A stretch of DNA of 64,000 nucleotides from Fimicolochytrium jonesii (taxonomy: Eukaryota): assembly GCF_025526975.1 (NCBI RefSeq), contig NW_026515682.1:496001-560000 (forward strand), in the 5' to 3' direction. Below the pieces are notes generated by a model that was not told the DNA's origin, searched no databases, and saw only the letters and a program-made list of their open reading frames with translations. This document shows, piece by piece, positions 5,268 to 47,700 of this stretch. The translations under genes and the position numbers were made by a program. The stretch's first letter is position 1; each line of letters opens with the position of its first letter.

Positions 5268-5298
5268 TCTTTCCTTTTGTCAAATATTGATGTCCTCA

Positions 5299-9969: not shown

Positions 9970-10318
9970 TAGTCGTATCGAAATGAATGGGATCGTCCCA
10001 GTTCGTAATGTTCCAAATCGTATAGGTCAAGTCTTCTGCATGTTCTTCAAGATAATCTCGGATTTCGGATGAGCGTTCGGAGGTTTCACGGGTCTTTTTC
10101 TTGCCGTCATTTCGCAGCATAAACGAATTGATTGAATGACTGTAGGATCTTTGATTGGCGGAAGTGTTGCGATTGCGAAGTACGGCGGCTTTGGCATCTT
10201 CGAAAACTTTCTTAATCCCTCCTCGTCCGATGTTCAAAGGGATTTCTTGTCCGGGTACTCCAATGGTCGTATTGTGAGGGTACGCAATTCGTCCTTGTCC
10301 GTTAAGAACTAGTTCTTC

Positions 10319-11588
10319 TCAGTTCTGAACCTCAGAAAAGTCTCTGCAAAATCTGCGCTGGTGTCCTTCTTGATCACAATAAACACATCGCAAGGGTCGA
10401 ACATTCGCATTGCCGGTACTCGTTGAGCTACTGCCTTGCGAATCGTTCGCAGGCGGAAGTCGGGTCGCAGGAGTCAAGCTCTGCAGGATTCGGTTCTGGC
10501 TAGTCTGCAACTGGGCCATTCGTTCGGTCATTTTGCGTACTGCTCGGTCAAGTTTACTCTCGGTCTGCAATACTTGTCCTTGTACGAAGTTCAGCTGGTC
10601 ACTAACGGTCGGGTTGGTAATACCGGGGATCGTAAGAATCGGTTTCTGAACTGTCATAGATCGCGCGTCGGAATCGGGTTGCTTGATAACTGTCGTAAGT
10701 TGAGAAAGCGCAGCAACTAGTTGCTTCGGTGATGGCTTCCATAACTCGGCTAACGGAGGGTAACTGAGTTGGTCGCAAGTGGGTTCCACGTTCAGCAGCG
10801 AGTCTTCTGGCTTGTTGGAGAACTCGTTTGTCGAAGCCGGGTTCGTCTTTCCACGGGATCAGAAGCAAATTGATCTTTTCTTTGTCAGCGACCCCATCGA
10901 TTCTTGCATATCCATAGGCCATTTCGTTGATAAATTCTGCAACGTTGGCAGTGTTCCGTTTGACATGGTCTCGTTGACTGAGAGCCCATTGTTCGAGGTT
11001 GTTGAAAGTATGGCGAGTTTGAAAGGAATCAAAGTTCAATATCACCTCTTCAGTAAACGTCACCCAAGTTGGTTCTTCTCTCCATCGAGTATATTTGGTT
11101 ATGTCAAGCGATTGGAAACTAGGCATACTACAAAGCAGCGGTCGAAGGCTTGGTTGCGAATACTGGATGAATGTCTGCATACATCGTTTGTGTTTCAATT
11201 CCACGATTTGTCGCTCCTCCTGATTAGCAATAGCAGGATCTCGCGGGTTGTACGGACTGCGAAGTGTGGTGTGCAGAGGGTTGAGGATGATGCTCGGGTA
11301 CTGGGCGTCAGGTTCATATCCAGCGTCGTTAAGTTGAGCATAGAATAGGTCGAGTTTCTCTTGTACATCTCGTCCATCGAACTCTATAGCTCCAGGTTGT
11401 CCTATCATAGGTAAACCTTTTGAACTAGCAACTCAAAGTAGCATAGCGAACTGGTTGGCAGTCACAGGAAACATCGGGTTGTTTGCCCCATAGTCAGGAG
11501 GCGGGTTAGGCGGATTGTTCAGGTTCGGGTTGGGATCTGGATTCGGGTCAGGATTCGAATTATCGGGCGGCGGATTAGCGTCTGCCAT
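10319..11588 (-). pseudogene. Gypsy gag with CCHC zinc knuckle (interrupted)
   Basis: ATG at 11588, Pro/Asn-rich N-terminus, early stop, FDGRDV motif and CVYCDQEGHQRRFC knuckle at about 10345-10390. Confidence 0.85.
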
Positions 11589-11950
11589 TTTGTCAAGAAA
11601 GTTGCTATTACTTGAAAAATGCGAAGATGTCTAAAATAGACGGTCGAAGATTGTCTCTAAAAAGGAGTCGGTTGTCGGAGTACGAAAGTGCTGACGTCAA
11701 AGAATGGCGCAGCAGAATGTACGTGTGAAAACGCGCTTTTGCATGTCGAAACAAGGGGTAGGCTGTCGAAAAGTCGGGCGGCGATGCGCTGTCGAGCTGT
11801 CAAAAAGCAGCTGTTTTTGGTAGATAGCGAGTCGAATAACTAGCGTATCGATTTTCGTCGGTTTTTGTTGTACGGTAGGTACAAAGTCTATACGGATAAG
11901 CAGGTTTAAAGGATGTCTGAGCGATAGAATCTCTTTTCGTCGAAGAAAAG

Positions 11951-11970
11951 GACTCCTGGTAGGATCGCCA
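11951..11970 (-). other. Primer-binding site, probably for tRNA-Arg(ACG)
   Basis: TGGCGATCCTACCAGGAGTC lies 5 nt inside the 5' LTR. Its complement GACTCCTGGTAGGATCGCCA resembles eukaryotic tRNA-Arg(ACG) 3' ends (from memory). Confidence 0.75.
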
Positions 11971-11975
11971 GTAAA

Positions 11976-13051
11976 TGTGGTGGTGGCCGGCAGAAGCGAG
12001 GGTCTGTCAAATACGGGGTTACGGTCGGGTGTCGGGAAAAATAAGCTGCTGGTCTCTCAATAGCACAAGAAGAGATCTCAAGCGAGAGCGTTGTCTTGCC
12101 ACCTTAATATCCAGGTGCTTTGAAAGGAGTCCTTCTTCTAATACGGGGTCAGGAATTACGGGCACGGGCACAAAATACGGAATCGGAATATCTGCGGGTT
12201 TGACTACAAAACAAAACAACGGGGTTATCCAGTCTCACTCTCAGCTCTTATTACGAGATTCCTGAACTATCAAGTCCTCGGCGACGTCAGCAAAGTACAA
12301 GTCACGACACTCGGGGTCGTCTTGTCCTCTCCGGGTCTATGAGCGCGCCTTGAAAGTCTATCAGAAACTGAAAGAAGTCGTCGGGAGTAGAGAAGTAGAA
12401 AGCTCTGTTGTTGATCGGGATCTGTGTTCTGCGTATCGTACAAAGGTCTGGGGAAAACAGGCGGGTTTTTATCTGGATTTTTCTAGGCTACGGGATTTTG
12501 TCGAAGTCCAAACTCTCTACTAGTCTTCTCTAGAGGATTTAGCTACGTTGGGGTCTTTTTCTCTTTTCCTGCGGCGGTCTACGTAGTTTTTCCTTTTTCC
12601 ATTTGCAATTTTGGCGCTGATACAGCCTTATTGCTAATCTTTTCTCGGGGTTTTCTGCAACGTTCGGCGTATACGGCCACCGGAAATTGGTTTTCTCGTT
12701 TTGCAGGTGATTTCTTCAGCGTTTCGGGCATCGTTGGAGCTTCTGGTTGGTTGAGAGTCGGGTCGGGGGTGCTTTCATGTGTGACATCCTCTCCTACGCC
12801 TACATTTTTCGCATGTCAGTCGTATCCGAGGACAAAACATCGTTGAGAAGCAAGGTTTTGCTAAAGATAGTTGTATTTGGTGATCGTCGGAGTGTCGGGA
12901 ACGCAAGTGTGTCAATTTATTGTCGGAAGTTTTGACGGTATTTTGACGTTGTTGTATAAAGGTGATTTCATTCGCTCGTCGAAGATTCTAGGCGTATAAT
13001 CAGCGTCGAAATATTATCGATTTCATGCGCAGTTTGAAGCGCAATACTACA
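11976..13051 (-). repeat. 5' LTR
   Basis: TGTAGTA...CACCACA termini on the minus strand; direct repeat of 4196-5267. Confidence 0.95.
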
Positions 13052-16173: not shown

Positions 16174-16306
16174 AAACGCTGTATTCTAAATTGAATCGAG
16201 ACCCTAACCCTAACCCTAACCCTAACCCTAACCCTACTTTGTAAACGTTGTATTCTCACTTGAATCAGGACTCTAACCATAACCCTAACCCTAAATTGAA
16301 TCAAGA
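16174..16306 (+). repeat. Interstitial telomeric (CCCTAA)n repeats within a duplicated ~69-bp unit
   Basis: (CCCTAA)5CCCTA at 16202-16236 and a degenerate tract at 16271-16294, each preceded by AAACGYTGTATTCT..TTGAATC. Confidence 0.9.
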
Positions 16307-19308: not shown

Positions 19309-22300
19309 ATGTCGAGCGACCCGCCGCCACGGAAGCGGCCGAGGACCAACACGGTGGACATGGACTGGGCAGCCACAGTCCCACCACCGACCATAGTGAA
19401 ACCGACGGAGGGACTCGAAGGAGAGGCCTTGAAGGAGGCGCCCAGCGTGCTAGTGCTTGCAACCGCGGCGGACGCGGATGGTGGAGACAACTTTCTGGAG
19501 ACTATCCCGGTGGACTTCGCAAATGTAAGAGTCGGGGCTCGAAGAATTATTGTTCCCACTACCTGCTGAGCCTCGTTGGATATCAGGCGTACAAACGTGG
19601 GTCGGAACTCATTTCACAAATCATCAACGAAGGAGCAGTTCCAACCGCACGTAAGTTACAGATTCTATTTCTATGTTCCAGCCGAAGTCGTCGCTAACTG
19701 GTCTCTGCAGCGAAGGGCGTAGATCTGGTCGGAGCAGCACGAGCCTTGCAGCTCCAACTGTCTGCCCTCTATTCAGGTGCGATTCTCGAAAGTGTGAATC
19801 AAGAGAGCACACAGCGATTCTCATGGAGGAACAGATCTGGTAGAGGAGCAGCACGACCGTATCATCACGCAACGCATCAAGGACTTTGAACACAATCGAA
19901 GCGTATGTAGCGTGGAACGCTTTGCTGTTGAAAAAGGGACGGATTTCACGAACGATACTCGCTTCTTTCTAGTCCCATCCGCCGAATGTTGAACGGGAGT
20001 GGCATTGGACACAGTTTTCGAATCTCGTGGAGAGTCTTGTGCAGCTGACACGACAGTTCATCGATGGACTGCGTCATCTAGGATCCCAGTGCGTACTGCG
20101 CGTTCTTGGCCGATTGCGTGATGGTTTAGTAACTCTACATGCAGCTGTTCGCACGCTGAGAGCCAGCTGAGAGATATCTTGGAAGGGAATCTGCGACTCG
20201 CCTTGACAGAATCGTGGTTCACAGAACTCGACTGGGCGTTCGAACATAGTTTCCAACTCTACCTGGAGAGTTTGGATTCCGACGAGGATGGTACGCGATG
20301 ATGAAAGAGTGTTAGGGATATCACATCACATAACAGCGTGCCTTGCTGACGCCATATCTGATGTAGAGATGCTGCCACAAATCGCTGCAAACAACCGCCA
20401 AGTCACGACACTCTTAGCTAACCTCAAAGAGCTCGGATTCCAAGCCGAAATCAATTCCGCCATCCTGGCGACTACCCGGAAATGCATAAAGCGCCGGGTG
20501 GATGAATGTTCTCGCCAATACGACGAACCGCAACTGGACGCTGCTGTCCAATGGGTCGATGACCACGTCACGAACGGCTGGCTACGGTCAATTTCCGAGA
20601 ACGCTGACATAACGAGCATCGGCGGTCGAGCTGACTGGGCTAGCGTATTTGAGCAAGCTACCCATCAGTATTTCTGCCAGTTGCGCATATCCGAGATCTT
20701 CGAGATAATCTGCGAAGCGATTGATGAGTTCCCCGAAGATGCCTTGAAGGATCTCCGCCGCTGCTTGACGACTACCGTCGAGAACGAACAGCTTGAACGA
20801 ACGTTGCATGAGGCGATCGAAGATCGGGCGCTGCATCCGGGAGTCTGCACTGATAACATCATCAACGTGCTGATTGCGACGGAAATGTGCTTAAAAGTGC
20901 TCGATCCGACGTCGTCGTTGCTGTTGAAGACGATCAGTCCGATGATGAAGTATCTTCGGCAGCGCACGGATACGGTCAAGCTTCTGTTGGCGAGAATGCT
21001 TGATGAGGAGGGGAGTCTGGCGGAGGCTATCAGGCATGGAGATAAGAATATTGCTGATGATGAGATGGACGATGATTATGAGGCTTGGGTGCCGGAGCCG
21101 GTTGACGCTGGTACCGTGCCCTTGTCGGAAGCATGCTATATGCACTTCGTTTGTAAAGCTCAAGCATTGCTCTTTTGCTTCTAGTTGGCAGTCGTCAGGA
21201 ACGTAACGCCGATATCATCACCCGAATCATCAAAAGCTTTGACGACCAAGACGCGTTTGTGGAGGAGTACCATAACCTCCTCTACGATCACCTGATTCAC
21301 AACGGCAGCTTCAACACTGACAAAGAGGTCAGTGAATCCTTCTCCGGCGCTCAGTCACTCAGTGGCACATAATTGATTCGGTTTACGTTCACTAGACATT
21401 GGAGATCGAGTTGTTGAAGACCCGATTCGGCGAGGACAGCTTCCACGATTGTGAAGTTATGCTGATGGATATGGCCAACTCGCGGAGATTGCACAATCAT
21501 TTTATCGAGAAAGTCGTGAGGTTTCCTGAGATTGTGAGTTTACAAACAGCCGCACATCACGGTTTGGCATCGTTATGAAACGGATATTCATTGGTTTCTG
21601 CAGGACACATTCCAAGCTATTGTCGGATCGCACCTATTTTGGCCGGAGATAGAAGAGACTGCTTTCAAGATTCCTTGGACTGAAATCGCTCGGTAAGCAG
21701 TTACTGCGGTTTGTTTTTCGACAATGCATGCATAGGGAGTGTTTAGCAAAATCCTCTGCACACCCCTTATTCCAGGTCACAATCAGTCTACGAATCAGTC
21801 TACAGCCAACAAAAGCAAAACCGCCACCTCGACTGGAAACACAACGCCGGCCAAGTCCAGCTCGAGCTCGAGATGGCCGACGGCCGCATCCGATCCGTCT
21901 CCGTCACCGAGCTGCAAGCCGCTGTCGTCCACTTCTTCTCCGACCTACCGGAATCGGGGTCCGCTGGCGTGGCGGAGGTTTTGGAGGCACTGAGGACGCC
22001 GGAGAGTAAGCCGACGCTGGGACGACAGGTTTTGGAGTGTGTGCAGTTTTGGTGTCAGCAGGGGGTTTTGGCGCCTGTGGATGAGACGCAGACGCGGTGG
22101 AAGGTGGTTGAGGATCCGGATGAGTATGATGATGATGGTAATGTGTCTGTTCCCACTGCCCTTACTGTTCTTTCGTTTGGGCATCACGTTGGTATTCATG
22201 TCTTATCATGTGACGTCTCACCAATCCTCCCTCACACTCCACAGACGGCACCCTACAAGCACCCACCACACACCCCACAGAAGCCCTCGAAGCCCACCAA

Positions 22301-22516: not shown

Positions 22517-22790
22517 TGTGGTGTGGAGGTTTTTCGGGGCGTTAGCCTGGCGTATGCGGCAGTGGATGAGACCCCGGCGCATCTACTAAAGAACGAGTCT
22601 ACATATAGCGCACATCTGTTAGAAGGATGTAGGGTTATTTGTGTGGTTTGATACCATTGGTTTGTACATCCTCATTGTTTACTCTGATCCATGTCCGCGA
22701 CGTCCGTGTCCCCCCACGTGACCGCATATTCCCTATTCCTTCTTACCTTCCCGCTGCCCTCTGATTCCTTCTTACCTTCCTACCACATCT

Positions 22791-23395
22791 GCGCCTGGAA
22801 TAGGGGCAGTCTCGCGGTACGCTCTCTCGCCTTCCGCAATCGCTTGGGGCAGCTTACCTCATAAACAAACACATCTCCTAACAGTGTTTTCACAATGGTG
22901 GACAGTACTTTTTCCTTAGGGTCCGCGCACTAGAGGCGCGAACCGGACTTTTTCTTCAGGGTCCTTTCGAACGGGTATAAAAGCAAACCAGTACTGACAT
23001 TCCCTCGCAGGCATGCGCCATCGCCCGAGACAGCTCGGAATAGGAGCAGCCTCGCGATACGCTACCTTCTTGACTCGCGATCGCCCGAGACAGCTCGGAA
23101 TAGGAGCAGCCTCGCGATTCGTTTGCCATTCTACGTCTGCCATTCTACGTCTGCCATTCTACGTCACAAACCCACTCCCATGCTCCCGCGATGACCTATG
23201 TACTCCGCCCCAACTAAGTCACATACTCCATTCACCAGGCAAATCACCATGACAGCATCAACGTCAAAGCCCCGTTCCGCAATCGCTTGGGGCAGCCCGG
23301 AATAGGGGCAGTCTCGCGATTCGCTTCACTCTTTACGACTTCCGCAATCGCTTGGGGCAGCCCGGAATAGGGGCAGTCTCGCGATTTGCTCTCTC
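22791..23395 (+). repeat. Dispersed/tandem ~48-bp hairpin-like repeats (period 60-65) in the Fanzor leader
   Basis: CGCAATCGCTTGGGGCAGCCCGGAATAGGGGCAGTCTCGCGATT and variants at about 22794, 23017, 23077, 23276 and 23341. Also (TGCCATTCTACGTC)x3 at 23124-23166. Confidence 0.85.
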
Positions 23396-23780
23396 GACTT
23401 CCTCAAGGCATCAGCATCCAATATGTTGCTCTAGCAATACGTTGGTCTAGCGGCACTACGCTCACCGGTGATGAAGCCACAACCATGATGGAACTGCTTT
23501 CTGACGAAGACTTCCATTACTTCACGCCGCCCACCTCCATCTCTGCTGAGATCCGATGATTATGGGTGAAAAAATGCGTGCAATTCATCAATCTCCCGAG
23601 AAGCGCATATTGATTCCCACATTTACGTAGCTTAGCTTTTTGCAAATCACTGTGGTTGGACTGCGTTTGGACCAACGTTGACATACTGTACTTTGCTGCT
23701 ATAGCCGTCACTCGCCTCCGGCGGCTCCCAATGTGTGAAGGGGAATAAAGTAACGAGTTCCACAATCAACCCCAGAGCTG

Positions 23781-23823
23781 CCCCACATCCTTTACACGCG
23801 TGTAAAAAACGTGGGGATCCCCA
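23781..23823. promoter_or_regulatory. Palindromic site upstream of the Fanzor gene
   Basis: CCCCAC-ATCC-TTTACACGCGTGTAAA-AAAC-GTGGGG, overlapping TGGGGATCCCCA. Identical in copy C at 61782-61824. Function unknown. Confidence 0.5.
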
Positions 23824-24096
23824 CTCTACTCTTCCTCACTCTTCGCGCTCCTCACGCTCTTGATTGCACCTCGTCATGGCCCCCAATTACATACCAACCC
23901 TCCTTCCCACCCCCCTTCCTTCCCAACGCAATTGTGAGCAGTAAGCATTCCCGGTTTCACCTTCAACCACCACCAGGTAACAACCGCAATTCCTCACCGT
24001 TCTCAGCCTCATTACCACAGCACTGACGCGAGTTCTTTGACACACAGCCATCACGGCAATCACCTGCAACACCTGTCTCGGCACAGCACAGCCATC

Positions 24097-27000
24097 ATGT
24101 CATCACACCAGGCGCTCCAGGGGCACCTGTGGGGTGGCTTCTTTGCCGGAGTTACCACACCACGGCGGAAGAGGAGGAAGGTTGCTCCGGTTACCCCTCG
24201 GTTACGTCTGCCAACCGCTGTGCAGCCAACCTCTGTGCAGACACCATTGCAACCCCCACGATTCGAGCTCCCACCCTCTGTCCATCGCCACTTGCCCCAA
24301 GCAGTTGCAGACATGGTTGGCGAGAGTTCCGGCGATGAAGACGGGCAGCAGCAGCAGCAACAGCAGCGAGGGCTTTCACCCGCGGACAGGGGCCTGCAGC
24401 GTCCGTTGAACCTCCCTGCTCCCATCCCTTTCCTTTTTCCCAGCACCCCGGGTGGATCCCTGGTGCTTGAACCCCCGTCACCACCACCCGCTCAACGACC
24501 CCGGCAGACACATGCAGGCACCAAGGTTTCGCTTCACCGAATCCATAATCAAAATCAAGTTCAAAGGGAGCGCCTGACAACATTCATCGGCAACGTTCAC
24601 ATCCTTGCGCGCCACACCACCTTCTTTCTCAAGTACTACCTTGGTGAGGTTTTGAGGTACACTGTATATTTCCCATGATATTTCCCATAACAATGTCCTG
24701 ACTACTACGTCTGCCCACCGCAGCTGATCATCCTCTACGCGATTTCCCGGACATCACTGACAAGCACATCAGTGTGATGTTTGAGCTGCTCAACAATCCA
24801 GGCTACAACGGCAATCCGGTCATCGCGCAAGAGTTGCGTCCATGGGTTCAAGACTACTGTGATGTTCACGGATTCGCCCCCATACGCATGCGAAATTGCC
24901 AACAGACGGCAGCATACACGGCTCAGAGCATCCTCACAAACCTCAAAGTCAACGTACAAGAGCATTTCATGCAAATGCTTCTGCGCTACATCAACGAAAG
25001 GATTGGTTTGAAGCAAGTCGCACTGCATCTCCGGAGAGCCAGAGTCAACCGAGCGCAGCGGAGACAGTATTATCAGCGGGTCCGTCACTTTACAAAATTT
25101 GCGACGTTTGAAGAGTTTCCAACCGAAGAGGACTTTGCGCGCCTCACACGACTTGAACGGACTGTCCTTGACGAGTCATGGGCTCTGTTTCCTGCCCAGG
25201 ATGAGCCGCTTGCATACAGCCTTGCGGTGGACGCAATGCCATATTTAGGTGAGTTGCATCCTGTATATTCACCCCCCCCCCCCCCCCCCAGGCTCGTGCG
25301 TGGCTGTGCAGTGCCTCGCTTGGTATGCCAACCTGGCCGAGTGGCTGCCCGCCGGGACCCCGGCCGACGTGGTTTGCGATGCGCTGTTGGCGCTGGGCGC
25401 CCGCACGCTTGGCTCCCGCGGCCCCCCCACCCCCCCCCCCGGCCTCGACGACGCCGCCAGTGCGCGCACAGCGGGCCCGGGGCGCGACCGATGCTCTTGC
25501 CCACCGCCATGGCGTCAACGTAACCAGCGCCGCCGACGTGTTCGCCGCGCGCCGAACATAACGCGAAACCCCCCCCCCCCCCCCCTGCGGTGCCCTCTTT
25601 TGTCTAATCATGGTCTGCACCTGCCTCGCCTCATCACAGGTGCCCACTGTGAACTCTCGCGCCTCTATGAGCGCCGTGGAATGCGCCTGTTCTCCGCTAT
25701 CCCGCTGCGCAAATCTCGAATTCAGTCATCTGTTTGGATCGACACGCTGATCCTAGGCACTCATATCCTGGATGTTGGCCGACGTCGCATGGGGAAACTC
25801 ACTGATGAACGCAAGCAGGAGCTGTGGGGGCAGTTTCTCAATGTGAATGTAAGTCTGTATCCTTTGATGAAGAGGCGCGCGAAGGTCGGGTGGATGGCGA
25901 GACAGCCGGTGAGGATGCAGTCGATGTAGGATTGCGGGATCGGTGTGCACGGGGTCGGTGTGTGCGGGGCTGCCGGTCCCGTGCACGCGCTTGTGCGGGA
26001 CGACGGGGGCTGGAGCTCGTACACCCACACGACAACGGGCGCGGCGGGGGATGTGGTTGTGGTTTCAAACGGGTGTGAGATGGTGGGTGAAGATGGCGGG
26101 GTGTTGAAGTGGAGGATCTCGATGTCCTCCACTCTGACCGTTCCGCGGACGTAGTCCTTCTCGCGCTCGTTGGGTGGGTGTGCGGACGGTGCGGAGGCGC
26201 GAGTGCGGGTTGATGAGGGTGCGGCTCTTATTTCAATCACCTTGCTGAATGACGCATTATAGGACAAGGTCTTCAAACATCGAAAGAAGCTTGGTCTCAA
26301 GTTTGATGGGTCAATTAGCACCAACGGGTATTCCGTTACCATCCACTTCAAGAAGCCAGGGCTAAAGTATGGGCATCGGGCCCGGAAGCGCAGCAAGGCC
26401 CAAATGCGGGAAGAAGTCAAGCAGTTGTATTTTGAGCACCACATCGCCGAACTACGGGAGGCTCCAAACATTGTCTGCATTGAACCGGGCAAGCGTGACC
26501 TCCTGTTCTGTCGAGATATTGAGAAGGAGCGGCCATTTCGGTAAGTTTCAGTTGATTACTACTGCCCTGCTGTCCCCATCCCCCCCCCCCTTCCCCAACC
26601 CTCGACTTTGCGGAAGATGGTGCGGAGGTGTTTGCGGACGTTGACTTGGAAGGGGTGGTTCCCCTGTTTGCGTACACGGGCAACGAATCTGGGCGAGAAT
26701 CCTTGCGGATCTGGGCGAGGAGTTCGTTGATAGAGTTGGACGAGCACGGAGCTGTCGATGGGAACGCCGCCAATGACGGAGCAGCCGCGGTTGGTTTGCT
26801 TGTCGCCGTCGCGCGTCATATCGCTCGTCGCGTGGCCCATGTTGATGACCTGCATGACGGTGTCGAGGCCAACCCTGTCTCCGCCCCCAGCCCCCCGTCT
26901 CCGCCCCCCAGCCCCCCGTCTCCGCCCGCCAGCCCCCCGCCCGCCCGGAGAGACATGACAGAGCGGAAGATCAATGCCGGCGTTGCTGAGATGGAATCAC

Positions 27001-27769
27001 ATATTCCATCGCACAAGAGCATGAACATCGAGGCGTTCTCAGCGTTCCTTGTGGATTACAAACATGCGGGTATGATGTTCTACTTCAACTTTAATTTTCA
27101 ATATTTGGTAATACATGGGCTGACATCCATCCATATCCCAGATCCCGCCCTGGATGAATTTTACCGGGATGAGATTCACGTCGCTCGCAGGTTCAAGGCG
27201 TTCTCACTGCGGCAAAAGTCTGAGAGCAAGCTCATTAAGAATTTGCGACGCCGGTATGGAAAGCATTTTTCGGTCATCTTGGGTGATTGGAGCGATGCTG
27301 GGAAAACGATGCGCTTTCAGGAGTCATCAAAGACCAAGGGGTGAGTGACCATCATTGGTAGTACCTACGATGTATTATAATATGCTAACTCATCATGGAA
27401 ATCAGATTCCGCACACTCTTTGCAAGAAACAGCATTCCATGCTACTTGCTAGATGAGTATCGAACGTCGTCCGTGTGCCCAGACTGCCACGGCCGTGTGA
27501 AGAAAAACATCCAACAGCGGCTGTCATCTTGGCCGTGGCAAGCTAGAAAGGGAAGAATGGAATACGTCCATGGATTGGTGGGTTGCCCCAACCCCGAATG
27601 TATCAACCAAGACTGGACGCCATTTGGGATTCCTGGAAGACAACCACTACGACTACGAATGAAAGCGCACAATCGGGACGTCCTAAGCACCAAGAATTTC
27701 CTCTCGATTGTGCGTTCGGTGGTGTTTGGCGATGGCCGCAGACCAGACGCATTCTCCCGTAACCGGTAG
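24097..27769 (+). CDS. Fanzor1 copy B, 7 exons; no stops in exons, but RuvC-I D>E and the start of exon 5 is deleted
   Basis: Exons 24097-24643, 24724-25248, 25640-25848, 26263-26540, about 26933-27069, 27142-27340 and 27406-27769, with consistent phases. Motifs: ILTNLKVNVQEHF, IVCIEPGKRDLL, VILGDWS, LLDEYRTSSVCPDC, CPNPEC, HNRDVLSTKNF. Confidence 0.9.
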
Positions 27770-27934
27770 TCTAGAATTTTCACCCCATTCAATGTTCCGT
27801 GGTGGTTATCTGCCATCCACATCATTGTACCTCTGCCGGAGGCATCGCCGATGATGGCAACTTGTAAACAGAACCATGACAGCCGGCGAAGATACGGGCC
27901 ATCTCAAATATTTACATTTCCAAGCTACGGTTAC
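27759..27934 (+). ncRNA. Candidate Fanzor omegaRNA scaffold
   Basis: Overlaps the stop codon and extends 3'. Nested stems: 27759-27776 with 27918-27934, GTGGTT/AACCAT, TGCCATC (27811) with GATGGCA (27853), and CCTC..GAGG and CATC..GATG hairpins. Confidence 0.5.
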
Positions 27935-28298
27935 TATCGAGAAAGCTACCAGCCATCATAACGGAGTGAACAGCACACTTGAGTGGATCCGTCTACCCAA
28001 GTAGAGAGATCCTTTGCTGGCTGCTACTAATACAAGCCCGTGTTGACGCAGCGGCCCAGGATATTCGTCAAGGAATGTGCTCGTTGCACTCAACCCGCTG
28101 CAAAATGCAGTCTTACGCCGCTCGCGTTCATGGGTATATCCACCCGACAGAGCCCGCCGACGCGTCCGTCAATACTCTCAATTGAGGGACATCATGCGAC
28201 CTTTGCATGGACAGGGCCTTCCCTCTCTGACTCCCGTGATGGTGAAAGATGCTCATCCCACACGACAAGCGGTAAACCACCACCATACCTAATTTCTA

Positions 28299-29364
28299 TC
28301 AATCCCTACCCAACTCTCCTTCCTCCTCCTCGCCACGAGTATCGCCACCTTCCCGCCCAACAACATCCATCCGCTCCGCCGCCCCATCCTGACTCTGCGT
28401 CCCGGACCGATCCCGTCGCGCGTTATCGGCATCGTCCACGTCCATCCCCGTATGCTCCGCTGTCGCTGGCGCGCTGCTCTCGTTCGTAGTGTTCAGTGCG
28501 GCTTTGCGCTTTGCTTCGAGGAGGAGTTGTGTGGTCTTGTCGTTGTGTTCTTTGGGGAGGTAGTAGATTTGGGAGCGGCGGCCGTTGTGGGTTTTGAGGA
28601 AGTGGGATGTGTTGCGGATTTGTGCTTTTATGTGCTCTTTCTGGAAATTTTCGAGCGGGAGTAAGTGGCGGTCCTGAATACTTCACGAGCCATAGATCTT
28701 CATTCCCCTTCCTACCGTTTTCTCTATCCTCTCCTGATCCTCTTGCTCCCGTTTCGCTTTCATCATTGCGCTGCGCTCTTTGAAATCCTGCTCCACCTGC
28801 ACCGCCAACTCTTCCTTCTCTTTCTTTAGCTTCTCTTGCAGCTTCTGCTCGATCTCCTCCCTTCGTTTCTCCTACAACCGTGCGGCACGTTGGTTAGACT
28901 GCGGAGTTCATCACACCACCAGTTCCTAGCGCCTGTACGAGTCACAAAGACAAGTTGTTGGCCACGACATGAATGGTACATACAGCTTCAGTCTTCCGAG
29001 TCGTAGATTTAGCCGCTTTCTGCAGTGTCCCGTTCAGTATCCCGAACATTCGTCGTGATCGCTTTGTGAGGTTCTCGTCCATGCTTAACCGGGGTCGTTT
29101 CTATGTGTATGCGGAGATCATAGCTTCAGTCTCGACGCCGCGTAACATATCCTGTCCGGTCGTCCAGCGTACCTCCCCACCGTTGCTAACGGGTGCTGGT
29201 AAATCCCTTACGACATCTTCGTCGCCATCCATTTTCCTGCAAAAGCAATAGCATTGGAATTCGAAGTGATACCACGCGCCCCGTTTCACCGATCTCTCCG
29301 CTTACTCTTCTTTTACCGGTGCTTCCACCGGTGATGGGTCAGAAGGCTGCTCTTCGACCATCAT
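28299..29364 (-). CDS. Pinin/SDK/memA-domain protein, multi-exon
   Basis: KRSRRMFGILNGTLQK, EKRREIEQKLQEKL and HFLKT...IYYLP motifs. Confidence 0.78.
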
Positions 29365-29591
29365 GATTGCGTGGTGTTTGGGAGTGTTTGCTTGACAGGT
29401 GCTGTAGTTCCTGTTTGTGTGCATGCAGTGTTGCATGAGGGTGTGGGGCCCAACGACAGCCGAACTATATTGATGCGTCACGTGGTTCCAAATCATTCTT
29501 ATTTCAACGCCCAAGCTCCAGCAACCGAGCAACGCTTCAAGATTAGCACCATCGCCACTTCTACGCACCGAGAACAAGATTAGCAACAGCC

Positions 29592-30890
29592 ATGCACCGA
29601 ACCGCCGTCGCTCGTCAGACGGCGAGCCATACCTACTGCAGTGCGAAATGGGCGGACTACATCACCGCCACTCGAGCTCGTCGTTCACTGCTGCAGCAAG
29701 GAATGGCCGGCCCACGATGTCCTAGCAATGTACGGCTGCTATGTAGCACACCGTGCATACGAGCGAACGATAACTGGAAGAGTAGCGGCTTCACTCCACG
29801 GCCACCACCGCGGCGGCCATTGCCGTCTCTCGCGGGTCCCCCACGAGGGCCACCTCCGTTTTCTCCCTTCCAACGGCAACAACAGCAGCAACAACAGCGG
29901 GACGCCGTTGACCAGAAGGAGCAGAATTCGCCGCTTCAGCAGCCTGAAACACCACCACAACCCAAAGCAGTACCAGGATGGCGAGCTCAGCTGGAAAGCC
30001 AACAGCAGGCGCGAAACAGTCGCGGCAAAACGGGGTCGCCATCCCCCGCTTCAGCCGGTGCCACGCCGGTCGAACCCGAGCGACCGATGAACGAACGCAT
30101 CCCATACCCCACCATCATCCTCGTCTCCATCACCGGCGAAAACCTCGGCCCAAAACCGCTCACCGAAGCACTCACAACATTCGATCGCGCAACAGCCGAT
30201 CTCGTCCTCGTCAACACGAAGCTGGACCCACCATTATGCCGCGTGATGCCAAAAGACAAAGCAAAAGCACGCGCAATAAAAGCGGGTCTAGCGGCGTTCG
30301 AGAAACCGGTGCGAAACGCCAAAATCGCAAAGGAGGTGGAAGGGAAGGTGGTGGTGGTGGACGTCGAGACAGGGACCACGAAAGGCGTGATGTCTGTCGA
30401 CGACGCATTGAAGGATCTCAAACTCGACACCTACACACTGCTGCTGTACTCCCAGGGCACCGTACCCAAATCCTTCCCCAAAGCGACCGTCGAACCACCA
30501 GAGAACGGCGCGGTCGTGTACATCGTCTCCCACGACGAGCAGGACCGCCTACGCGCCGAAGGCCGCTCCTCCTCCTCCTCCTCGAAATCCAAATCCAAAT
30601 CCGGGAACGCATCCAACAACGTCGTAAAAGAGATCGAACTGGGCTCAACCATCTCCGCGCACGATCTGCAGATCAAGCTCGCCAAGGCGCGGCAGTTCCT
30701 TGAAAGTAAACATCGGCTGCAGATTGGAATTGTGCAGAAACGCGGCGCGCCAAAAGGAGCGGTCCAGACGCTGGTGAAGAGTGTCCGGCATGAGTTGAAG
30801 GGGTTTGGAACGGTGGTGAATGAGCAGGAGGCGGAGAATGGGAGAAAGACGTTGTTGGATTATACGCCGGGGCCGCCGAAGAAGAAATGA
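29592..30890 (+). CDS. Mitochondrial translation initiation factor IF-3 (start may be the later Met at 29703)
   Basis: MNERIPYPTIILVSITGENLG...DLVLVNTKLDPPLCRVM (IF3-N) and KEIELGSTISAHDLQIKLAKARQFL (IF3-C). Confidence 0.85.
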   Translation: MHRTAVARQTASHTYCSAKWADYITATRARRSLLQQGMAGPRCPSNVRLLCSTPCIRANDNWKSSGFTPRPPPRRPLPSLAGPPRGPPPFSPFQRQQQQQQQRDAVDQKEQNSPLQQPETPPQPKAVPGWRAQLESQQQARNSRGKTGSPSPASAGATPVEPERPMNERIPYPTIILVSITGENLGPKPLTEALTTFDRATADLVLVNTKLDPPLCRVMPKDKAKARAIKAGLAAFEKPVRNAKIAKEVEGKVVVVDVETGTTKGVMSVDDALKDLKLDTYTLLLYSQGTVPKSFPKATVEPPENGAVVYIVSHDEQDRLRAEGRSSSSSSKSKSKSGNASNNVVKEIELGSTISAHDLQIKLAKARQFLESKHRLQIGIVQKRGAPKGAVQTLVKSVRHELKGFGTVVNEQEAENGRKTLLDYTPGPPKKK

Positions 30891-31347: not shown

Positions 31348-32685
31348 ATGGTGACCCCGCCAGACAATAGGCCCGATGCCGTGGAAGCTGCAATTCTCAA
31401 ACAGGTTGAGTACATACTTCTGACCCAAGAGCAGAAGTTGAAGCTTAGTCTACGCATGACCGCTAACCCACTTTCCACAGACGAAAACCTCCCAAAAGAC
31501 AAATACCTCAACGAAGTCCTCCGGCTGCACCAAGGCTGGGTGCCCATTTCCGTCCTGCGGAGTTTCAAAAAATTGAAAGCGATTCAGTCCGACAGCGTGC
31601 GGATAGCCATTGCGTTGAAGAAGAGTGATGGGATGCTTGAGGTCGATGGGACGGGGAAGAAGGTTAGGAGGAGGACGCGGATATCTGCGAATGCAAAGGG
31701 GGTTGACAAGGAGGCACAGAGTAAGGAGGGGAAGAGGAAGACAGAGGATGAGCAAGGAGAACGGAATAGCGATGAGGTATGTGAAGGCAGCTTTCTTGCG
31801 AGAAGGGGGGGGGGCTTCCTGTGTTTGTTAGCTCACATTCTTCTTTCCTACACACCTAGACCGCCTCAAAGAAACGTCGCCAAACACAGCCCACCCCATC
31901 CACCACCCACCCAATCCCACCCGCCACAGCCCTCGACATCTTCCACACCCGCCACTTCAGCCAATCCGTCAAACAAACCTTCTTCCAAAACCCCATATTC
32001 GGGCCTCTCACATCGTCTACGGCCGCGCCGATAGCGCATGATGCAGACAATTACTGGTCAAAGTTGTGCACACCGTGCGCAGAGTACTGGTCGAATTACT
32101 ATAGCCAGCAGCAGGACACGTTAGACGTCACGGGTGTCACGGATGAAATGGCCCCGACTGAGGAAGATGAAACATGGGAAGCGGACGAAGATGTTACATA
32201 TGAGGAAGATGTTACATATGACAACGAAGTCGCATACGACGACGACAAAGATGCCGCATACGATGACGAAACCGAACCATCCTACATCCTAACCCCCGGC
32301 ATGATCGACATGTTCCGGCACCCGGCCACCTGGAAGATCGAGAAGCGCCGGATAGCGGAGGAGATGGAGGCGAAGGAGGCTGCAGGTACGTTTTCTCCCG
32401 TTTCACGCGCCTACCCCACGTACATATTGCCGCCACAATCTCACATATCAGCCCATTCTCTCATTCTACCTGCCAGAAACAGCAGCATCCACAGCCCAAT
32501 CCAACCTCAACACATGCACCCCCGCGACCCGCTTCGCCGCTAAACAACATCTGGATGGCGCCGATGGTGCGTACAAGGTTATTCTGATGGAAGACGCTTT
32601 GACGGAGTGGGTCAAGACGGGGACGGAGAAGGGGAAGGGGAAGGGGCGGAAGAGGGTTGTGTGGCCTATTGTTCCTATCAAGTAG
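31348..32685 (+). CDS. La-motif (HTH) protein with a Gemin8-like C-terminus
   Basis: ILKQVEY...DENLPKDKYL...GWVPISVLRSFKKLK. Introns 31777-31859 and 32387-32476 give an in-frame C-terminus LTPGMIDMF...KVILMEDAL...VVWPIVPIK*. Confidence 0.65.
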
Positions 32686-32726: not shown

Positions 32727-35700
32727 TCACGCCTGACTCGCGCCCCCAGCCGCCGCGGCGCCAAAGAAGTTTGCGCGATTGGGATCCATCATCCGATGCA
32801 CGCGCACATCATCCCCGTTGAGGCCGGGCACGCTGCCCATGGTCTGCGGGGTGATGAAGATGTACTGGCACGGCTTGTCGGACTCGCGCGCGTTCTCGAT
32901 CATGGCCGTCATTGCGGCGCGGCGGTTGACGGCGTCCTTGAATTCATCCGAAAAAAAAACACAGGGCGGTCAGATAGGATGCATGTAGGAAAGGGGAAAC
33001 ATATCTTGGGAGAGAAAGGGTTTCTTACCATGAACACATCAAACTCGTCCAGCGCTCTGAACGGGCTGCCCATGGATTCCCACAACGCGAGCAGCAGACA
33101 CACGGTCGAGAAACTCTTCTCGCCGCCGGAGAGCGATCGCGGATCCTTTTCCTTGCCCTTGCCTTTGGCCGACCGGCTGCTTTCGTCGCTGTTGACCGTT
33201 ACCTAGAGATAACGGAGGGGGGGGGGGGGCGGGGGGGGGGGGGGGGGGGGGGTGAGGACGTTGCATCTCGAAAAGGGGAGGCCCAACGAAAGAACAGTAC
33301 CGCCAGTTCCAACGCCCCTGCCTGATGATTCAGCTTCAGCCGGCCCCTGTACCCCCTCTTGCCCATCAGCTCCCCAAAGAGGAACTTGGCGCGAATGGAC
33401 ACGTAGCCGCGGTACGCGATCCACTGTGCCATGCGCACGTTGAGCGCCTCGCCAACGGCCTGCCCAAGCTTGCGCCAGTCCTTGATCTCGTTCCTGGCTT
33501 CTTCGTACGCGTGCAGTTTGGCGAGGTACGTGGTTTTCATGACGTTATAGTCGCCGTGGCTGTGGGAAACATGGGAGGGGGGGGGGGGGGGGGGGGGGCG
33601 GAGAAATCTATCAGTTTTCCCAACCCCCAAAAAACAAGCCACAAAAAAAAAGGGCAGAAAAGACAAAACCACCCACGTCTGAGCAATCTGCCTGATCGTC
33701 GCCTCCAACGTCCTTATGTCATGCTCCAACGCCTCCCTCCCACTCCGTGGTTCCACACGCTCGCAATACGCCTCCGCCTTCTCCACCTCGCTCCGCAGCG
33801 CCTCCTCCGCCTCCGCGACGGCCTGTTCCGCGTCGCGTAAGTCACCCTGCGCCTGGACCAGCCCGGCTTCGTAGCGCTCGCGCTGTGCGGTGGTTTGCGC
33901 GAGGGCCAAGGTGGCGGCGTTGATGTGCTCGACCACCTGGTTGATTTCGCGCTCGATGATGCGTTGCTCGTCGTCGAGGTGCTGGATCTGGTGCCGGATC
34001 GGTTGTTCGGAGGCGCGGAGGTCTTGTTGGCGGCGCAGGCATTCGCGCGATTGGTTGGCGGTGGCTTCGATGTTGGCTTCTTCGGCCTGGGAGTCTTTTA
34101 GTTCGCCCATCCTGCGGATGTGAGGCATGCAAGACGGCTCAGTTGGAATCCATACCCTTTTAGCCTCACGCAAGGGCCCGATATTATCCCCTTCATTCTC
34201 ATCCTAAACCATCGCCCGTCAAAATGTCAGCCAGCGTGCTGAGACCCCCCTCCCCAAAACCGCCAGCAAGCCAGCGCGCATACCACCAAATCATCATTCA
34301 TCTGCGCGATATCCTGCACCGTCTGTGTATGGTGCCTTTGTGACTTGGCATGTTCGTTCTGGAGATTCCAGGGGGAAAAGGAAAAGATCCCATCAGGGGT
34401 GTCAAAGATACTCAGCCACCCCCAACCAATGTGATGGCAGTACCCTCAGCGTCTTCTGCTTGTCTTCCACGTGCCGCAGATGTCCTTTGGCTTCGAGCAA
34501 GAGCGGGCCCAGCCGGTCGATCTCGCTCTCCGTGGCTCGGAGTTCCCTTTCCGCTTCTCTGCGGGTACAAAAAAACAAACGTGCATTCATCAGCGAAACG
34601 TACCCAACCGAATATCCCAGAGAGCGAGATGTACGACTCTCTCGGCTAGCGCGGGCGCCCCCCCCCCCCCCAACTCACCGAATAACCGAGGAAATATCCT
34701 GCAGAATCCTCGGGCGGCCCCTGTACTGCATCAACGAGCTCGTGCTCAGCCCCCCGCCTCGGTTCCCGACACTGAAACAGTTCTTTGTCACGACCACATT
34801 CACATTCTGCGGGAACCCACCGCCGGTGATCTGCTCGCCCTCGCGTCTCGTATACACCAACACGCTCTTCTCGACCGCGTGGTTGAGGACCAACTGGCGG
34901 AGGATGATCTCATTGTCGACCTCGATGGCGCGGTAGACGGTCATGAGGTCCTTGTGGGGCTCGCCGCGGGAGATGTCGATGCGCTGGTTGCGGTAGCGGA
35001 GGATGCTGGAGCGGCAGCCGCAGGGGTCGAGGATGTGTTTCTGGAGCGTCAGGACGTCCTCGGGGGTCTCGACCGCGAAGGAGTTGAGGGTGTTTCCGAG
35101 GAGGGTTTCGATCGCGTTGCCGAAATCGGTCTGCCGGAGCTTGACGTGCAGCCCGATCGGGCCGAGGGGTTTGGCGCCTTTCCAGCGCTTCTCGCGCTCG
35201 AACCGCTCGATCTGCTCCATCACCCGCCGCATCTCGCGCCCAAACGCCTCGAGGCGGTCAGAGCTTTGGTTGCTCAGGCTGTGCAGGCGGTCCTGCTGGG
35301 AGCGCTGGGCGGTCTGCAGACGCTGCATGTTGCTGGTTAGATCGTGGACCGCTCGTTTCGCCTGGTCCCATTCCTGGTCTACAGCGGCGCGCTCGCCGTC
35401 GTATCGCCGGAGCGTCGCCTCGATCTCGGCCTTTGCGTCTTCGCGCGCTTTGATGGCTGCAAGCTGGTTGAAGCGGGTCATTTGTCCATCCACCTGCAAT
35501 TTCTGCGTCTCCTCCTCGATGCGTCTATCGATATCGGCAATGTTGCGTCGGTTGAGCGTGACGGCCTCGTTCATCTCCTGTATTTCGTTATCGACTTCCC
35601 TGAGAGCCTTGTGCACTTCTTCCAACTCCGCTCTCAGGTCCGCGCGCTGCCGCACAAGGGGCGCGCTACGTCCTTGTTGTGCAGCGAGTTGAGCTTCCAG

Positions 35701-37023
35701 CGCTTGGACTTGCCCATCCAGCTCCTCGCATTTGGCAACGGAGTTTTGGAGCTTTTGCGTCACTTTGGTCAAGCATCTCTGTTTCTGCACCACGTCGGCC
35801 TTTCGGGCCTCGAGGTTCTGCTCGACTTCTTTGACTTCGGACCAGACCCACATCTCTTTGAGCATCGCCACCTCTTCCTCGATTTTACGCGCGCGTTCGA
35901 GACCTTTTACCACCTGTTCCAACCTTTTGACCTCCTTCTTCATGTCCGGTAGGACCTCGGATCTGCGCCGGATTTGCTGGTCTAAGGTGTGGCGACTCTC
36001 CGTGATGACGGAGTAGTCGGCGCTCAATTGCCGGAGACCGGTGCCGGTAAGGAAGAACTGATACTTTTCCTTGGATGTGCTGTTGGCGAGGAAGCCCCGC
36101 GCGGCGTCCTGTGTGAGGATCGTCATGGGATTGTCGGCATGGATGCCCATGCTGTCCATGATGTTTAGGAGCTCCTCCCGCTTTGTGGATATGACTCTGC
36201 CATTCTTGGCTCTGATCTTGTAGCCGCCGGAGCCCTCCCTGCTGATCTTTCGTTCGACAATGATTCGATCGCCGTACTCGCTCGGCTTGTAGGCGTCGTT
36301 GCCTTCATTTCGGATGGTGACAGTGATGGACCCGACATTGCAGCCTTCTTTCAGGAAATCTTTCACGCTGTTTGCTCGGTTCGTGAGGGTTGCCCGAGCG
36401 CCGAGACAGACGGTCAGGGCGGTTAAGACGGCGCTCTTGCCTGATCCGTTGTGTCCGACGATGAAGTTGATCTTTGGGCCCAAATCGATTTTGAGGAATG
36501 TATGGCACATGAAGTTGGCCACCTCGACTTGGGCGATGGAGCCAGTGGCATCTTCTTGCTTTCGTTTGCCTGCCGACCGGCGCTGAAATATATGTTTCGA
36601 AGAGGCACTTGAGTCGGGGGGCGGGGGCTGGTCGTCAAGATGTTGAACGATGCATGCCGCCAGAACCCTTGCTGTCGCCGGCTGTGCAGTGTCCCAGTTC
36701 GCTCATCACACTCCCCTTTCACGCGAACCCACCTGCAAAGCCACCTCCTCCTCTCCCAAGCCATCGTCTACTCCGTCGTCGTCGTCCTCGTCCTCCTCCT
36801 CTTGAGACTCCTCTTCATTCTCGTCGTCGTCCTCCTCCTCGACCTCCGATCTGCGCTTCTTCCGGATATGCTCGTCCTTCGGACCCTCCGCAGAGTCTCT
36901 CTCCGACCTCTTCCTCCTAGCGGTGGGTGTAGGCGGCTCGTCGAACAAGAAGTTTTGGCTCGTCGCTGGATAGTCTTCGTCGTGGTCGTCGTCGCCGCGG
37001 TCGTCGCGCAAGTGGCCGTTCAT
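32727..37023 (-). CDS. SMC6: Structural maintenance of chromosomes protein 6, multi-exon
   Basis: NFMCH...[23 protein letters not shown]; coiled coil and hinge (PLGPIG); [19 protein letters not shown] and QYIFITPQ. Confidence 0.96.
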
Positions 37024-44705: not shown

Positions 44706-47700
44706 ATGGACAAGTTCCCAACGAACAACCTGGAAGAGCAACTGCAATGGTTCAGGTCCACCCGCTCCTCCTCGACGGCATCGCAGAAGGAAGCCGAAAA
44801 TGAGACGAGACCAGTGCCAAGCTTCCGGCCCGGAGTGGCAGTCGCCTTTCAGCCTGCTATTTTGCCGACCCCTGCAGCTCCGAATGTGCACGCAAGGCAG
44901 TCTTTCACTCCGATGGCACCGAATTCCTTTGCCAGATCGTGCGTGGGACGTTATACGGTTCAGCCCCAAAAACAGGCTTTTGCTAACGAATATCGTTATA
45001 GGAACTCCACCGCAGAAGCCGCGAGGCCCTCTTTCAATACTCCTCAAATAACCAGCCATGGTCAGGTACGGACGCCGGTTCAAATGGGTTGGTTGTAAGG
45101 TAGCGGCATTGCTCAACGGTGGCCAATATAGCCGATGGCCAGGTCGAACTCTGGTGGAACTGTCGAAACATTCGCGAGGCAAAAGACCACGGTTGGAAGT
45201 TTTGGATCCGCTATCTCGACCGTCCCCACACGATTCAAGGCAACGAGGACGACTGAAGGGGCACCTCCGAACCGCCCGAAACGCAAGTCGGACAGTTTCG
45301 CTGTGGAAGATGGTATTGCAGTACTCTCCGCGTAGTTATGGTCGAAGGCTGACTTGGGACGCTGAACGGCCTTTTGACTGACCGCCAGACGATCTTGCTT
45401 CCATGACGACACCTTCCTCTCCGGAGGAAACGCGGAAACGGCAAAGAACCAGTCCTGCGCCCGTTGAAGGGCCTTGGGAGTCGGGAGATGATGGTGGGAA
45501 TGCCTAGAATGGTTTCGAGAGTTGGTGAATGCAAGATGCTTACTGGGGGTCACCATCATTGCAGAATTTTTTGGCGTCGATGATGATGACATGCTCAACG
45601 CGCAGATGCTCGAGGACTTTGAATCGGTAAGCATGTCCTGCCGTCTCACCACATTGCAAAGGGCTCACAGAAACGAAATCAGGACTTCTATGCTCAAACA
45701 AATGGCAGCGAGGGCGCTCTGATACCCGTGCAAGGCGCTCGTTCTAATAGTAACTTCACGGGCCACGGTCCCAGCCGCCTGGAACTCGAAACATTGCGCA
45801 CCAAGTTGATCGACGAGAAAAGGACTGTATCCGATTTACTACTGGACTTGATGGGAGCTGGTAACGTGGATCCTATACGATTGTGCCAGTTGCAGGAGCA
45901 GCGGTAGGTTCATAGGTTCACGAACGATCGCGGTTGCGCACGAAGAACGAGTAGTTGCTAATCGGAGATGCAATTCCATAGGGCTGGCATTCAGAAGAAG
46001 ATTCACGAAGTTGAAGAGTTGCTATCTAAACAGGTGGGACTGCTCACCTCCGTCATTTGTCATTTACCGCGAGCTCACACCTGTAAGCAGGTCATCGCAA
46101 GTTTGAACGATTCTACCCCAATGAGAGGATCGGGGATGACGGACCATCGGAATGGCAACCTTAACCGAAGCGTCACACAAACCTCACACTTCCGGAGCCA
46201 GTCATTCGCCAGCACCACCCCTTTTCCGTCAATGAACTCAAGCAACACCACCCCGTTCCCATCGACTACCTCAAGCTTCAATCCTCAACCGGACAACAAT
46301 TTTCAAAAGGGCTTCACTCCACAATTGAAAGCGGGGCCTTCGTCAGGCTTTCCTCCACCAAACTCTTTAACCCGCAACGCGACATCGACGCCATCCATAA
46401 ACTCCATGCCTTCCATGTCCCATTTCCCCACGCATCAACAATCCGCCCCAAGAGCAACACCACGCAATCAAGCTCAAGGTGCTCTGGCTACGCGCCCTAG
46501 CCCGTCCCATGATATTTATAGCAGACCCGAGTATCAGTTCCCATGGTCAAGGGACGTGCGGAAAGCGATGAAGCAGATCTTTAAGTTAGAGGACTTTCGC
46601 ACGAATCAGGTTGAAGCGATAAACGCCACCCTCCAAGGGAAAGACTGTTTCGTTCTCATGCCGACGGGCGGTGGAAAGAGTTTATGCTACCAACTTCCTG
46701 CAGTCGTGCCCACCGGAAAGACAAACGGAATGACGCTGGTCGTATCACCGTTGCTCTCACTCATTACGGATCAAGTCCAGCAACTCAACGCGAAGGGAGT
46801 CATGGCCATCCCCTTGACCGGCACCCTCACCAACGAACAGAGAGACCGGGTGTACGCGGAGATATATGCACCAAATTCGGACGTTCGGTTGATATACGTC
46901 ACCCCTGAGATGATCATGAACAGCGGAAAGTTCCAAGACCTCGTGAAACACCTCCACGAGCGCGGCAAGTTGGCAAGGCTGGTCATCGACGAAGCCCATT
47001 GTGTCAGTCAATGGGGCCACGATTTCCGACCTGACTACAAGAACCTGGGTAACTTCCGACGCCAATACCCCGGCCTGCCCGTCATGGCACTCACGGCGAC
47101 CGCAAACGAGAAGGTCAAGCTGGACATCATTGACTGTCTCGGCATGCACAACTGCGCGCGGTTCGTGCAGAGTTTTAATCGAAGCAATCTCCGATATGAA
47201 GTGCGGAAGAAGGAGAAGCAGATCGTGAACGATATTTGCTCGCTTATCGAGACGTTTTATCCTGGACAATGTGGGATTATCTATTGCGGGTCTCGGAAGA
47301 ATTGCGAGGATGTTACGGACAAATTGAAGGTGTGTTCCAACTGACGCGTATTGGATGTTTGAACCCCCCTGCGAATTGGCTTCTAATGAACGAGTCCCGC
47401 AGAAAAACGGAATGGACATTGATTTCTACCATGCGGGACTGGAAAAGGACGATCGGTTGCGGATACAATCAGCATGGGCGACTGGCAAGATCAAGATTAT
47501 CGTGGCAACGGTGGCGTTTGGCATGGGTAAGCTTTACTGTTAAGCCCCCCATCGACCAACAGCACTACGGGCTGATCGAACAAAACCTCTCTACAGGTAT
47601 CGACAAGCCTGACGTCCGCTTCGTCATCCACTACAGTCTTCCCCACAGTCTTGAGGGCTACTATCAGGTACGTATGTGCACTCATCCGGAATCCGGTACG

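Follow-up and report, generated by a model that had tools for sequence, protein, structure and literature searches.

A probable omegaRNA of the SpuFz1 type behind a decayed Fanzor1 gene in a chytrid

Three copies of one Fanzor1 gene in the window

The window analysed here is a 64-kb stretch of intron-rich eukaryotic DNA that carries three related copies of one Fanzor1 gene, 85–93% alike: copy A on the minus strand (1–2890), and copies B (~24040–27769) and C (61846–64000) on the plus strand. Copies A and C run past the window at their 3′ ends, as the original prediction had stated. The gene in copy B (24097–27769) is decayed and ends with the stop codon TAG at 27767–27769. Its exons were mapped one by one by tblastn using annotated relatives and SpuFz1, with splice sites listed, giving seven exons and six introns on the plus strand; exons 1 to 4 are located at ~24097–24643, 24724–25248, 25640–25848 and 26263–26540, and exons 5 to 7 at 26949–27069 (start lost), 27142–27340 and 27406–27769. 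A shifted acceptor suspected at 27405 was ruled out, the acceptor being intact.

Judged by homology, the copy B gene is a Fanzor1 homologue, which bears out the name Fanzor given to it in the original prediction; Fanzors are relatives of CRISPR nucleases encoded on mobile elements. A member of the family (P0009) compared with solved structures matched only two, SpuFz1 (E 5.5e-84) and PpFz1 (E 6.5e-23), and the last exon of copy B shares 88–93% identity with ten annotated proteins of Fimicolochytrium jonesii (a chytrid of the order Spizellomycetales). The Fanzor1 nuclease pattern D-X(125-275)-[TS][TS]xx-C4 zinc finger-X(5-50)-RD, with its rearranged RuvC-II E, was found; the last exon of copy B contains DEYRTSSVCPDC...C..C...NRD, and the family has DPGKRD. 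Pfam named no Fanzor family at threshold, and 12 pattern matches of the last exon in viral contigs included none confirmed as a relative. Identity to the SpuFz1 protein, encoded by the Spu-1 element of a related chytrid, Spizellomyces punctatus, is 36–50% per aligned segment; whereas SpuFz1 is one open reading frame (ORF), the window family has six introns and a low-complexity N-terminus that is ~130 amino acids longer. The N-terminal PRRKRRK of copy B is likely a nuclear localisation signal, and Fanzors with introns and nuclear localisation signals have already been reported. Fanzor proteins of Fimicolochytrium jonesii are listed in Table S2 of Yoon 2023 (PMC10711439), where the genus name occurs 33 times, and are apparently the same protein family as the window copies; the rows examined list only proteins, with neither an RNA boundary nor a right end or a TAM given for the F. 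jonesii family. The genus is absent from the searched supplements of Saito 2023 and Jiang 2023, and a search of open-access papers found no published description of the RNA of this Fanzor1 family; the one paper that named both Fimicolochytrium and Fanzor was unrelated in content.

Copy B is, on its sequence, a pseudogene. The RuvC-I catalytic position (26482–26484, plus strand; D383 in SpuFz1) encodes E in copy B and D in copies A and C, both of which contain stop codons. Alignment with copy A showed that foreign and repeat DNA (26597–26948, plus strand) has taken the place of the acceptor of intron 4 and of ~17 codons at the start of exon 5, so that an active nuclease from copy B is unlikely; counterparts of SpuFz1 R414, R415 and R419 are also absent. 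The RuvC-II E (27455), the C4 zinc finger and the RuvC-III D (27677) are intact in the last exon (27455–27679, plus strand), and copy B lacks both an intact D-E-D triad and a complete ORF. Further insertions are present in introns 2 and 3. The foreign pieces lie at 25270–25570, 25855–26230 and 26597–26948, with another listed at 63735–64000; poly-C tracts occur at two of the three pieces in copy B introns, the part at 26600–26780 is partly common to copy C and absent from copy A, and Pfam found no match in ORFs overlapping the foreign DNA of copy B.

Ordinary host genes lie near copy B (ANAPC2-like, 20288–21184; IF-3, 29592–30890; La domain, 31348–32034) and further along (SMC, 34675–36522; DEAD-box helicase, 45968–47344). 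The window also contains a Ty3/gypsy-like LTR retrotransposon (4196–13050) with 1.07-kb direct repeats (4196–5266 and 11976–13050, 96% alike), whose minus strand encodes pieces of protease, RT and RNase H, and six copies of the telomere-like hexamer ACCCTA (16201–16236).

Right end of the element and the putative 75-nt scaffold

Parts of the stretch were found in two DNA metagenome runs: one contig of run X1, covering the ORF only, and eight contigs of run X2. Neither run had a contig covering 27881–28198, an absence that by itself is no evidence. Three of the eight, all soil-metagenome contigs, match 27808–27866, 27808–27867 and 27828–27866 and then continue into unrelated sequence. The loose ends begin after 27866 in two contigs (median 76 nt) and after 27867 in one (23 nt only), and mutual agreement of the two loose ends at 27866 was 0.62, as for unrelated sequences. 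One contig is identical to the window over 27808–27866. A fourth contig spans 27731–27837 and joins the end of the ORF to the scaffold; its differences from the window (3 substitutions and 5 gap letters) all fall at 27764–27794, with none listed at 27795–27837. The shared sequence therefore starts near 27792–27795 and ends at 27866. From these alignments, which comprise three short contigs of one metagenome run, the right end of the element is likely 27866, directly after CTTGTA (27861–27866, plus strand); distant Fanzor1 loci often end in CTAGTA or similar. A conserved 3′ region with a sharp end followed by variable flank, the arrangement expected of a Fanzor1 omegaRNA, is thus present in this small sample from one run. 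The original prediction had placed the scaffold end near 27934, and the drop in conservation among related contigs lies far from that position, an outcome that it had itself listed as counting against it. An exact 24-nt right-end pattern gave no matches in the metagenome contigs. The shared sequence terminates in TA, as in SpuFz1, and this TA may be a target-site duplication, placing the element end at 27864 or 27866; retention of target-site duplications in the scaffold has been reported for Fanzor1.

The SpuFz1 RNA is reported to consist of a 75-nt scaffold and 14–15 variable nt (Saito 2023, PMC10432273); U5, C6, C7 and stem-loop 1 are reported to contact the protein, C40–G70 being dispensable. 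Measured back from 27866, 75 nt reach 27792, and this likely omegaRNA scaffold (27792–27866, plus strand), delimited by the contig ends and by fixed-register similarity to SpuFz1, ends in TA like that of SpuFz1. It follows the stop codon by a 22-nt spacer (27770–27791, plus strand) that is variable among relatives and is 21 nt in SpuFz1 (by eye). U5, C6 and C7 fall at 27796–27798. The register ending at 27866 matched 10 of 18 named SpuFz1 positions, a score reached by 0.6% of window positions and tied by a second register, ending at 27854. Identity to the published SpuFz1 scaffold, counted by eye over ranges that, like the descriptor used below, were picked after the sequences had been seen, was 13/19 at positions 1–19 (binomial 8e-5), 19/37 at 1–37 (5e-4), 7/38 at 38–75 (0.87) and 26 over all 75 (0.04).

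The UCC and stem-loop 1 (27796–27820, plus strand) were assigned by pair probabilities, shuffle z and descriptor match: 27799–27805 pairs with 27813–27820, with U27816 bulged, a UUAUCUG loop and 7–8 pairs, at probabilities of 0.8–0.98 in one fold and 0.67–0.88 in another. The fold of 27792–27826 had z -2.46 (3 of 200 shuffles as good), and that of the whole 75 nt was no better than shuffles (z -0.34). As in SpuFz1, stem-loop 1 has seven pairs with a bulge, a pair number reported for three Fanzor1 RNAs (Xu 2024, PMC11423790); compared by eye, three of the pairs have both bases changed relative to SpuFz1, the loop is UUAUCUG here versus UUGUCG, and stem 2 is without similarity. The Parasitella parasitica PpFz1 RNA is reported to have UCC, a 7-nt arm, a UUAUCG loop, which is almost that of the window, and a very short basal stem 2 (Xu 2024, PMC11423790), but its protein is more distant and carries an FRI insertion, its total RNA is 75 nt and its TAM is ATN. 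Copy B keeps only 7 of the 17 SpuFz1 residues contacting the 5′ end or stem-loop 1. A TCCG-plus-hairpin descriptor matched solely at 27796 within 27700–28000, and with one looser descriptor 27796 was the most stable of 17 matches in the window. Rfam gave no match at E<=1 over 24000–30000; a scan for promoters and terminators was empty, these being bacterial signals that do not apply to eukaryotic DNA.

An alignment-driven scan provided 63 metagenome and 9 viral Fanzor1 loci of 22–52% identity for comparison; 44 of them extended past the protein match and were searched for a 3′ module. TCCG plus a hairpin was found behind 14 of these on the coding strand and behind none on the reverse strand, the 14 representing a few related subfamilies and not independent cases. 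Thirteen loci (10 distinct rows) were aligned; their 7-pair stem was 97% paired, with both partners altered in 3 of the 7 pairs, and its covariation score was reached by 0 of 500 shuffles, the rows being related and selected for the hairpin. C6 and G20 were invariant in the 13, matching the C6–G20 pair of SpuFz1. Different loci ceased to resemble one another no more than ~100 nt from module position 1, in most cases at 60–90 nt and often at CTAGTA. In this distant group (L010, L012, L013, L015, L016, L018–L020, L022, L024–L033, L038, L040 and L051), the module starts up to ~330 nt after the protein match, with UCC, a 7-pair stem and a 6-nt loop ending in G, and CTAGTA often precedes the variable flank.

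A covariance model (R1) built from the 13 loci gave nine matches at E<0.01 in 29 further loci, one of them a duplicate of a training locus. It failed to recover the loci whose proteins are closest (L001/L002, L003 and L007) as well as the UCC and stem-loop 1 present at 27796–27820; its 12 matches in the window were at chance level, with none at 27792 (E<=10). The distant family thus backs the architecture and is not a sequence-level confirmation. Ungapped comparison of 27792–27810 with the 3′ regions of 39 loci was uninformative (best 7–12/19), and free alignment with L001 did not place the modules in register. In L001 (4025–4100; SpuFz1-like, 40% identity) the stop is followed after 13 nt by T5CCG, with a 5-pair hairpin and, 76 nt further on, TTGTA; L002 represents this same locus, so that L001 is without an independent end.

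Taken together, we consider it probable that the element ends at 27866, that its last 75 nt (27792–27866) encode a SpuFz1-type omegaRNA scaffold, and that the next ~15 nt of host DNA would serve as the guide. The original prediction expected the guide to come from the 3′ end of the element with its spacer read from the flank, and the present reading, by analogy, agrees with that logic; the scaffold is, however, likely ~75 nt and not ~175 nt, being 68 nt shorter on the 3′ side, and the guide is predicted to start with AACAGAACC at 27867 instead of TATCGAGAAAGC at 27935. The 15-nt guide predicted from the variable extension of SpuFz1 (27867–27881, plus strand) has no second exact copy in the window.

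Alternative readings of the 3′ region

The 27866 boundary is also compatible with an omegaRNA homologue that is an inert relic at copy B, untranscribed or misfolded, a reading that we regard as a substantial possibility although not as the favoured one. It arises because copy B is a pseudogene and its own guide is predicted to invade stem-loop 1. When this guide was attached in the folding of naked RNA, the pair probability of stem-loop 1 fell to 0.05–0.12 and mispairing between guide and stem-loop 1 reached 0.65, due to pairing of AACCAU in the guide with GUGGUU in the 5′ arm. The GTGGTT/AACCAT helix of the original prediction (27802 and 27872) is thus recovered as a predicted pairing, but with the guide of copy B itself, so that it joins the scaffold to locus-specific flank. 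The catalytic substitution, three insertions and lost exon start of copy B, the stop codons of copies A and C, and the report of small RNA at four loci in S. punctatus all fit a relic, whereas the scaffold is undecayed relative to related contigs, and scaffolds of ORF-less ghost loci are functional with SpuFz1.

It is distinctly unlikely that the right end is 27866 but that the 5′ end of the mature RNA lies farther upstream, within the spacer or last codons, or that the RNA folds otherwise, for example as an AUCAUUG/CGAUGAU stem with an unpaired 3′ tail. The free fold does prefer this stem, pairing 27821–27827 with 27849–27855 (-19.6 to -20.7 kcal/mol); in the linker and stem-2 region (27821–27866, plus strand) the free fold reached -20.7 kcal/mol versus -15.8 for the SpuFz1-like register, in which stem 2 has four possible pairs (two G-U) and lies ~5 kcal/mol higher. 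SpuFz1 activity is improved by 5′ extensions, and the module went unrecognised by the covariance model. Against this, relatives vary at 27764–27794 with no difference listed at 27795–27837, and both the UCC register and the spacer length agree with SpuFz1.

A separate small repeat at 27808–27866, such as a MITE or terminal repeat unrelated to a Fanzor RNA, is very unlikely. Contigs over this interval were deeper (11–21) than ORF contigs (4–8), depth being a weak measure, and one contig shares only 27828–27866 with foreign sequence on both sides. However, another contig joins the end of the ORF to 27837, the UCC/stem-loop-1 signature lies upstream of 27828, and ghost loci are expected to yield surplus copies of the end (a reported 134 versus 42 in S. 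punctatus). The contig sharing only the last 39 nt (27828–27866; record 8 of run X2) is either a ghost with another 5′ part or, read in reverse, a left end belonging to a related element.

The ~175-nt scaffold of the original prediction was to be closed by a stem between 27759–27776 and 27918–27934 and to enclose TGCCATC/GATGGCA and GTGGTT/AACCAT helices. The quoted motifs lie where they were placed (TGCCATC at 27811, GATGGCA at 27853), and RNAfold paired the two arms in the 206-nt transcript 27755–27960 at probabilities of 0.4–0.78, but this pairing is at chance level. The proposed region folded with z -0.87 (37 of 200 shuffles as good) and 27759–27934 with z -0.79 (101 of 500), and none of 12 sub-regions of the proposed omegaRNA region reached z -1 in a shuffle test. 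Of 2000 random 250-nt stretches, 28% contained an equally good partner for the 18-nt arm, and among 2000 random 18-mers 55% found one within their own downstream 250 nt. The TGCCATC/GATGGCA helix had a pair probability of 0.0 in the 75-nt scaffold alone and is incompatible with stem-loop 1. As the element likely ends with CTTGTA at 27866, the 3′ arm of the stem (27918–27934, plus strand) is likely host DNA, flank 50–70 nt past the element end. Despite the stem formed in the long transcript and the reported GtFz1 RNA of 150 nt that overlaps its stop codon, a 175-nt scaffold with the guide from 27935 is largely refuted and close to untenable, given three contigs that diverge at 27866–27867, a stem energy at chance level, 4 of 18 named positions matched by a 75-nt register ending at 27934, and shared sequence in relatives that stops within ~100 nt of the module start and not at 143 nt.

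Left end, carrier and predicted guide function

Spu-1 is reported to be present in multiple copies, many of them partial (Saito 2023, PMC10432273; Bao and Jurka 2013, PMC3627910), as is the family here, but its 30–33-bp left inverted repeat was not found in any of the three window copies. Terminal inverted repeats (TIRs) of the Spu-1 type with CA-TA at the left were not found, though decay of the window copies could mask them. The best local inverted-repeat scores upstream of A, B and C were 20–22 versus a background of 16–26, no reverse match to the last 37 nt with <=12 mismatches occurred in the whole window, and no TIR was among the five longest pairs listed for L001, L003, L007 and L064. 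A GCCATCA-like match at 24048 and CATA at ~61842, tried as left-end candidates, scored at background. Copies B and C share upstream patches back to ~22720 and 61050, and copy A differs upstream of ~24070 and has an unrelated 37-nt tandem array (3143–3311). The shared patches (22720–23840 and 61050–61840), which contain 40–65-nt repeats and a palindrome with 18-bp arms (23781–23816/61782–61817), may belong to the carrier's 5′ part or to that of another repeat. Just upstream of the shared region in both copies is TTGTACAT (~22672–22679 and ~61022–61029); the final 5 nt at the right end are likewise TTGTA, and the likeness may be chance.

The CTTG-TA end and short hairpins, with no TIR found, might fit a carrier of the Helitron type, which has a subterminal 3′ hairpin, a CTRR-like end, no TIR and a Rep/helicase partner; no Rep/helicase was found among 21 window ORFs scanned. 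A broader scenario, which we regard as unlikely, is that a SpuFz1-class nuclease moved from the inverted-repeat Spu-1 carrier to a one-ended Helitron-like carrier with a CTTG-TA end, variable 5′ ends, six introns and captured filler DNA, keeping its 75-nt RNA and changing its TAM, with broken copies such as B forming a guide library for a few intact copies, and with UCC, a 7-pair stem and a UUAUCG-type loop as a signature of Fanzor1 guide RNAs. If true, this signature would make it possible to recognise Fanzor1 guide RNAs across fungi on the basis of single loci.

On the preferred reading, a SpuFz1-type scaffold ending at 27866, and by analogy with SpuFz1 and PpFz1, an RNA of ~90 nt (~27792–27881) would span the element end, attach to the RuvC/TNB surface through its UCC and stem-loop 1, and retain the terminal TA within the scaffold. 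By means of the guide taken from the flank, a Fanzor encoded by an intact copy elsewhere would be led to the empty insertion site, where the cut would adjoin a TA-ending motif, so that retention or copying of the element would be favoured. Copy B would be at most a guide donor in trans, as may likewise hold for Spu-1 ghost loci, which keep a scaffold without a usable nuclease gene; in copy B, unlike in those loci, the ORF is still present and disrupted. Of the TAM residues of SpuFz1, Q129, Q130 and Y345 are kept in the broken copy B, whereas R96 is replaced by G and N133 by A, so the TAM likely differs from CATA.

The decayed Fanzor1 copy likely carries at its right end an omegaRNA of the SpuFz1 type, an ordinary example of a kind already known, and the known mechanism is unchanged by it. 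What the corrected boundary adds is a concrete, testable scaffold (27792–27866), together with the position where the guide would begin, in a close relative of SpuFz1 previously catalogued as a protein. With its changed TAM-reading residues, an intact member of this family would be a modest prospect as a compact editor that uses a different TAM, and the shared UCC/stem-loop-1 module may serve as a practical marker for Fanzor1 guide RNAs.
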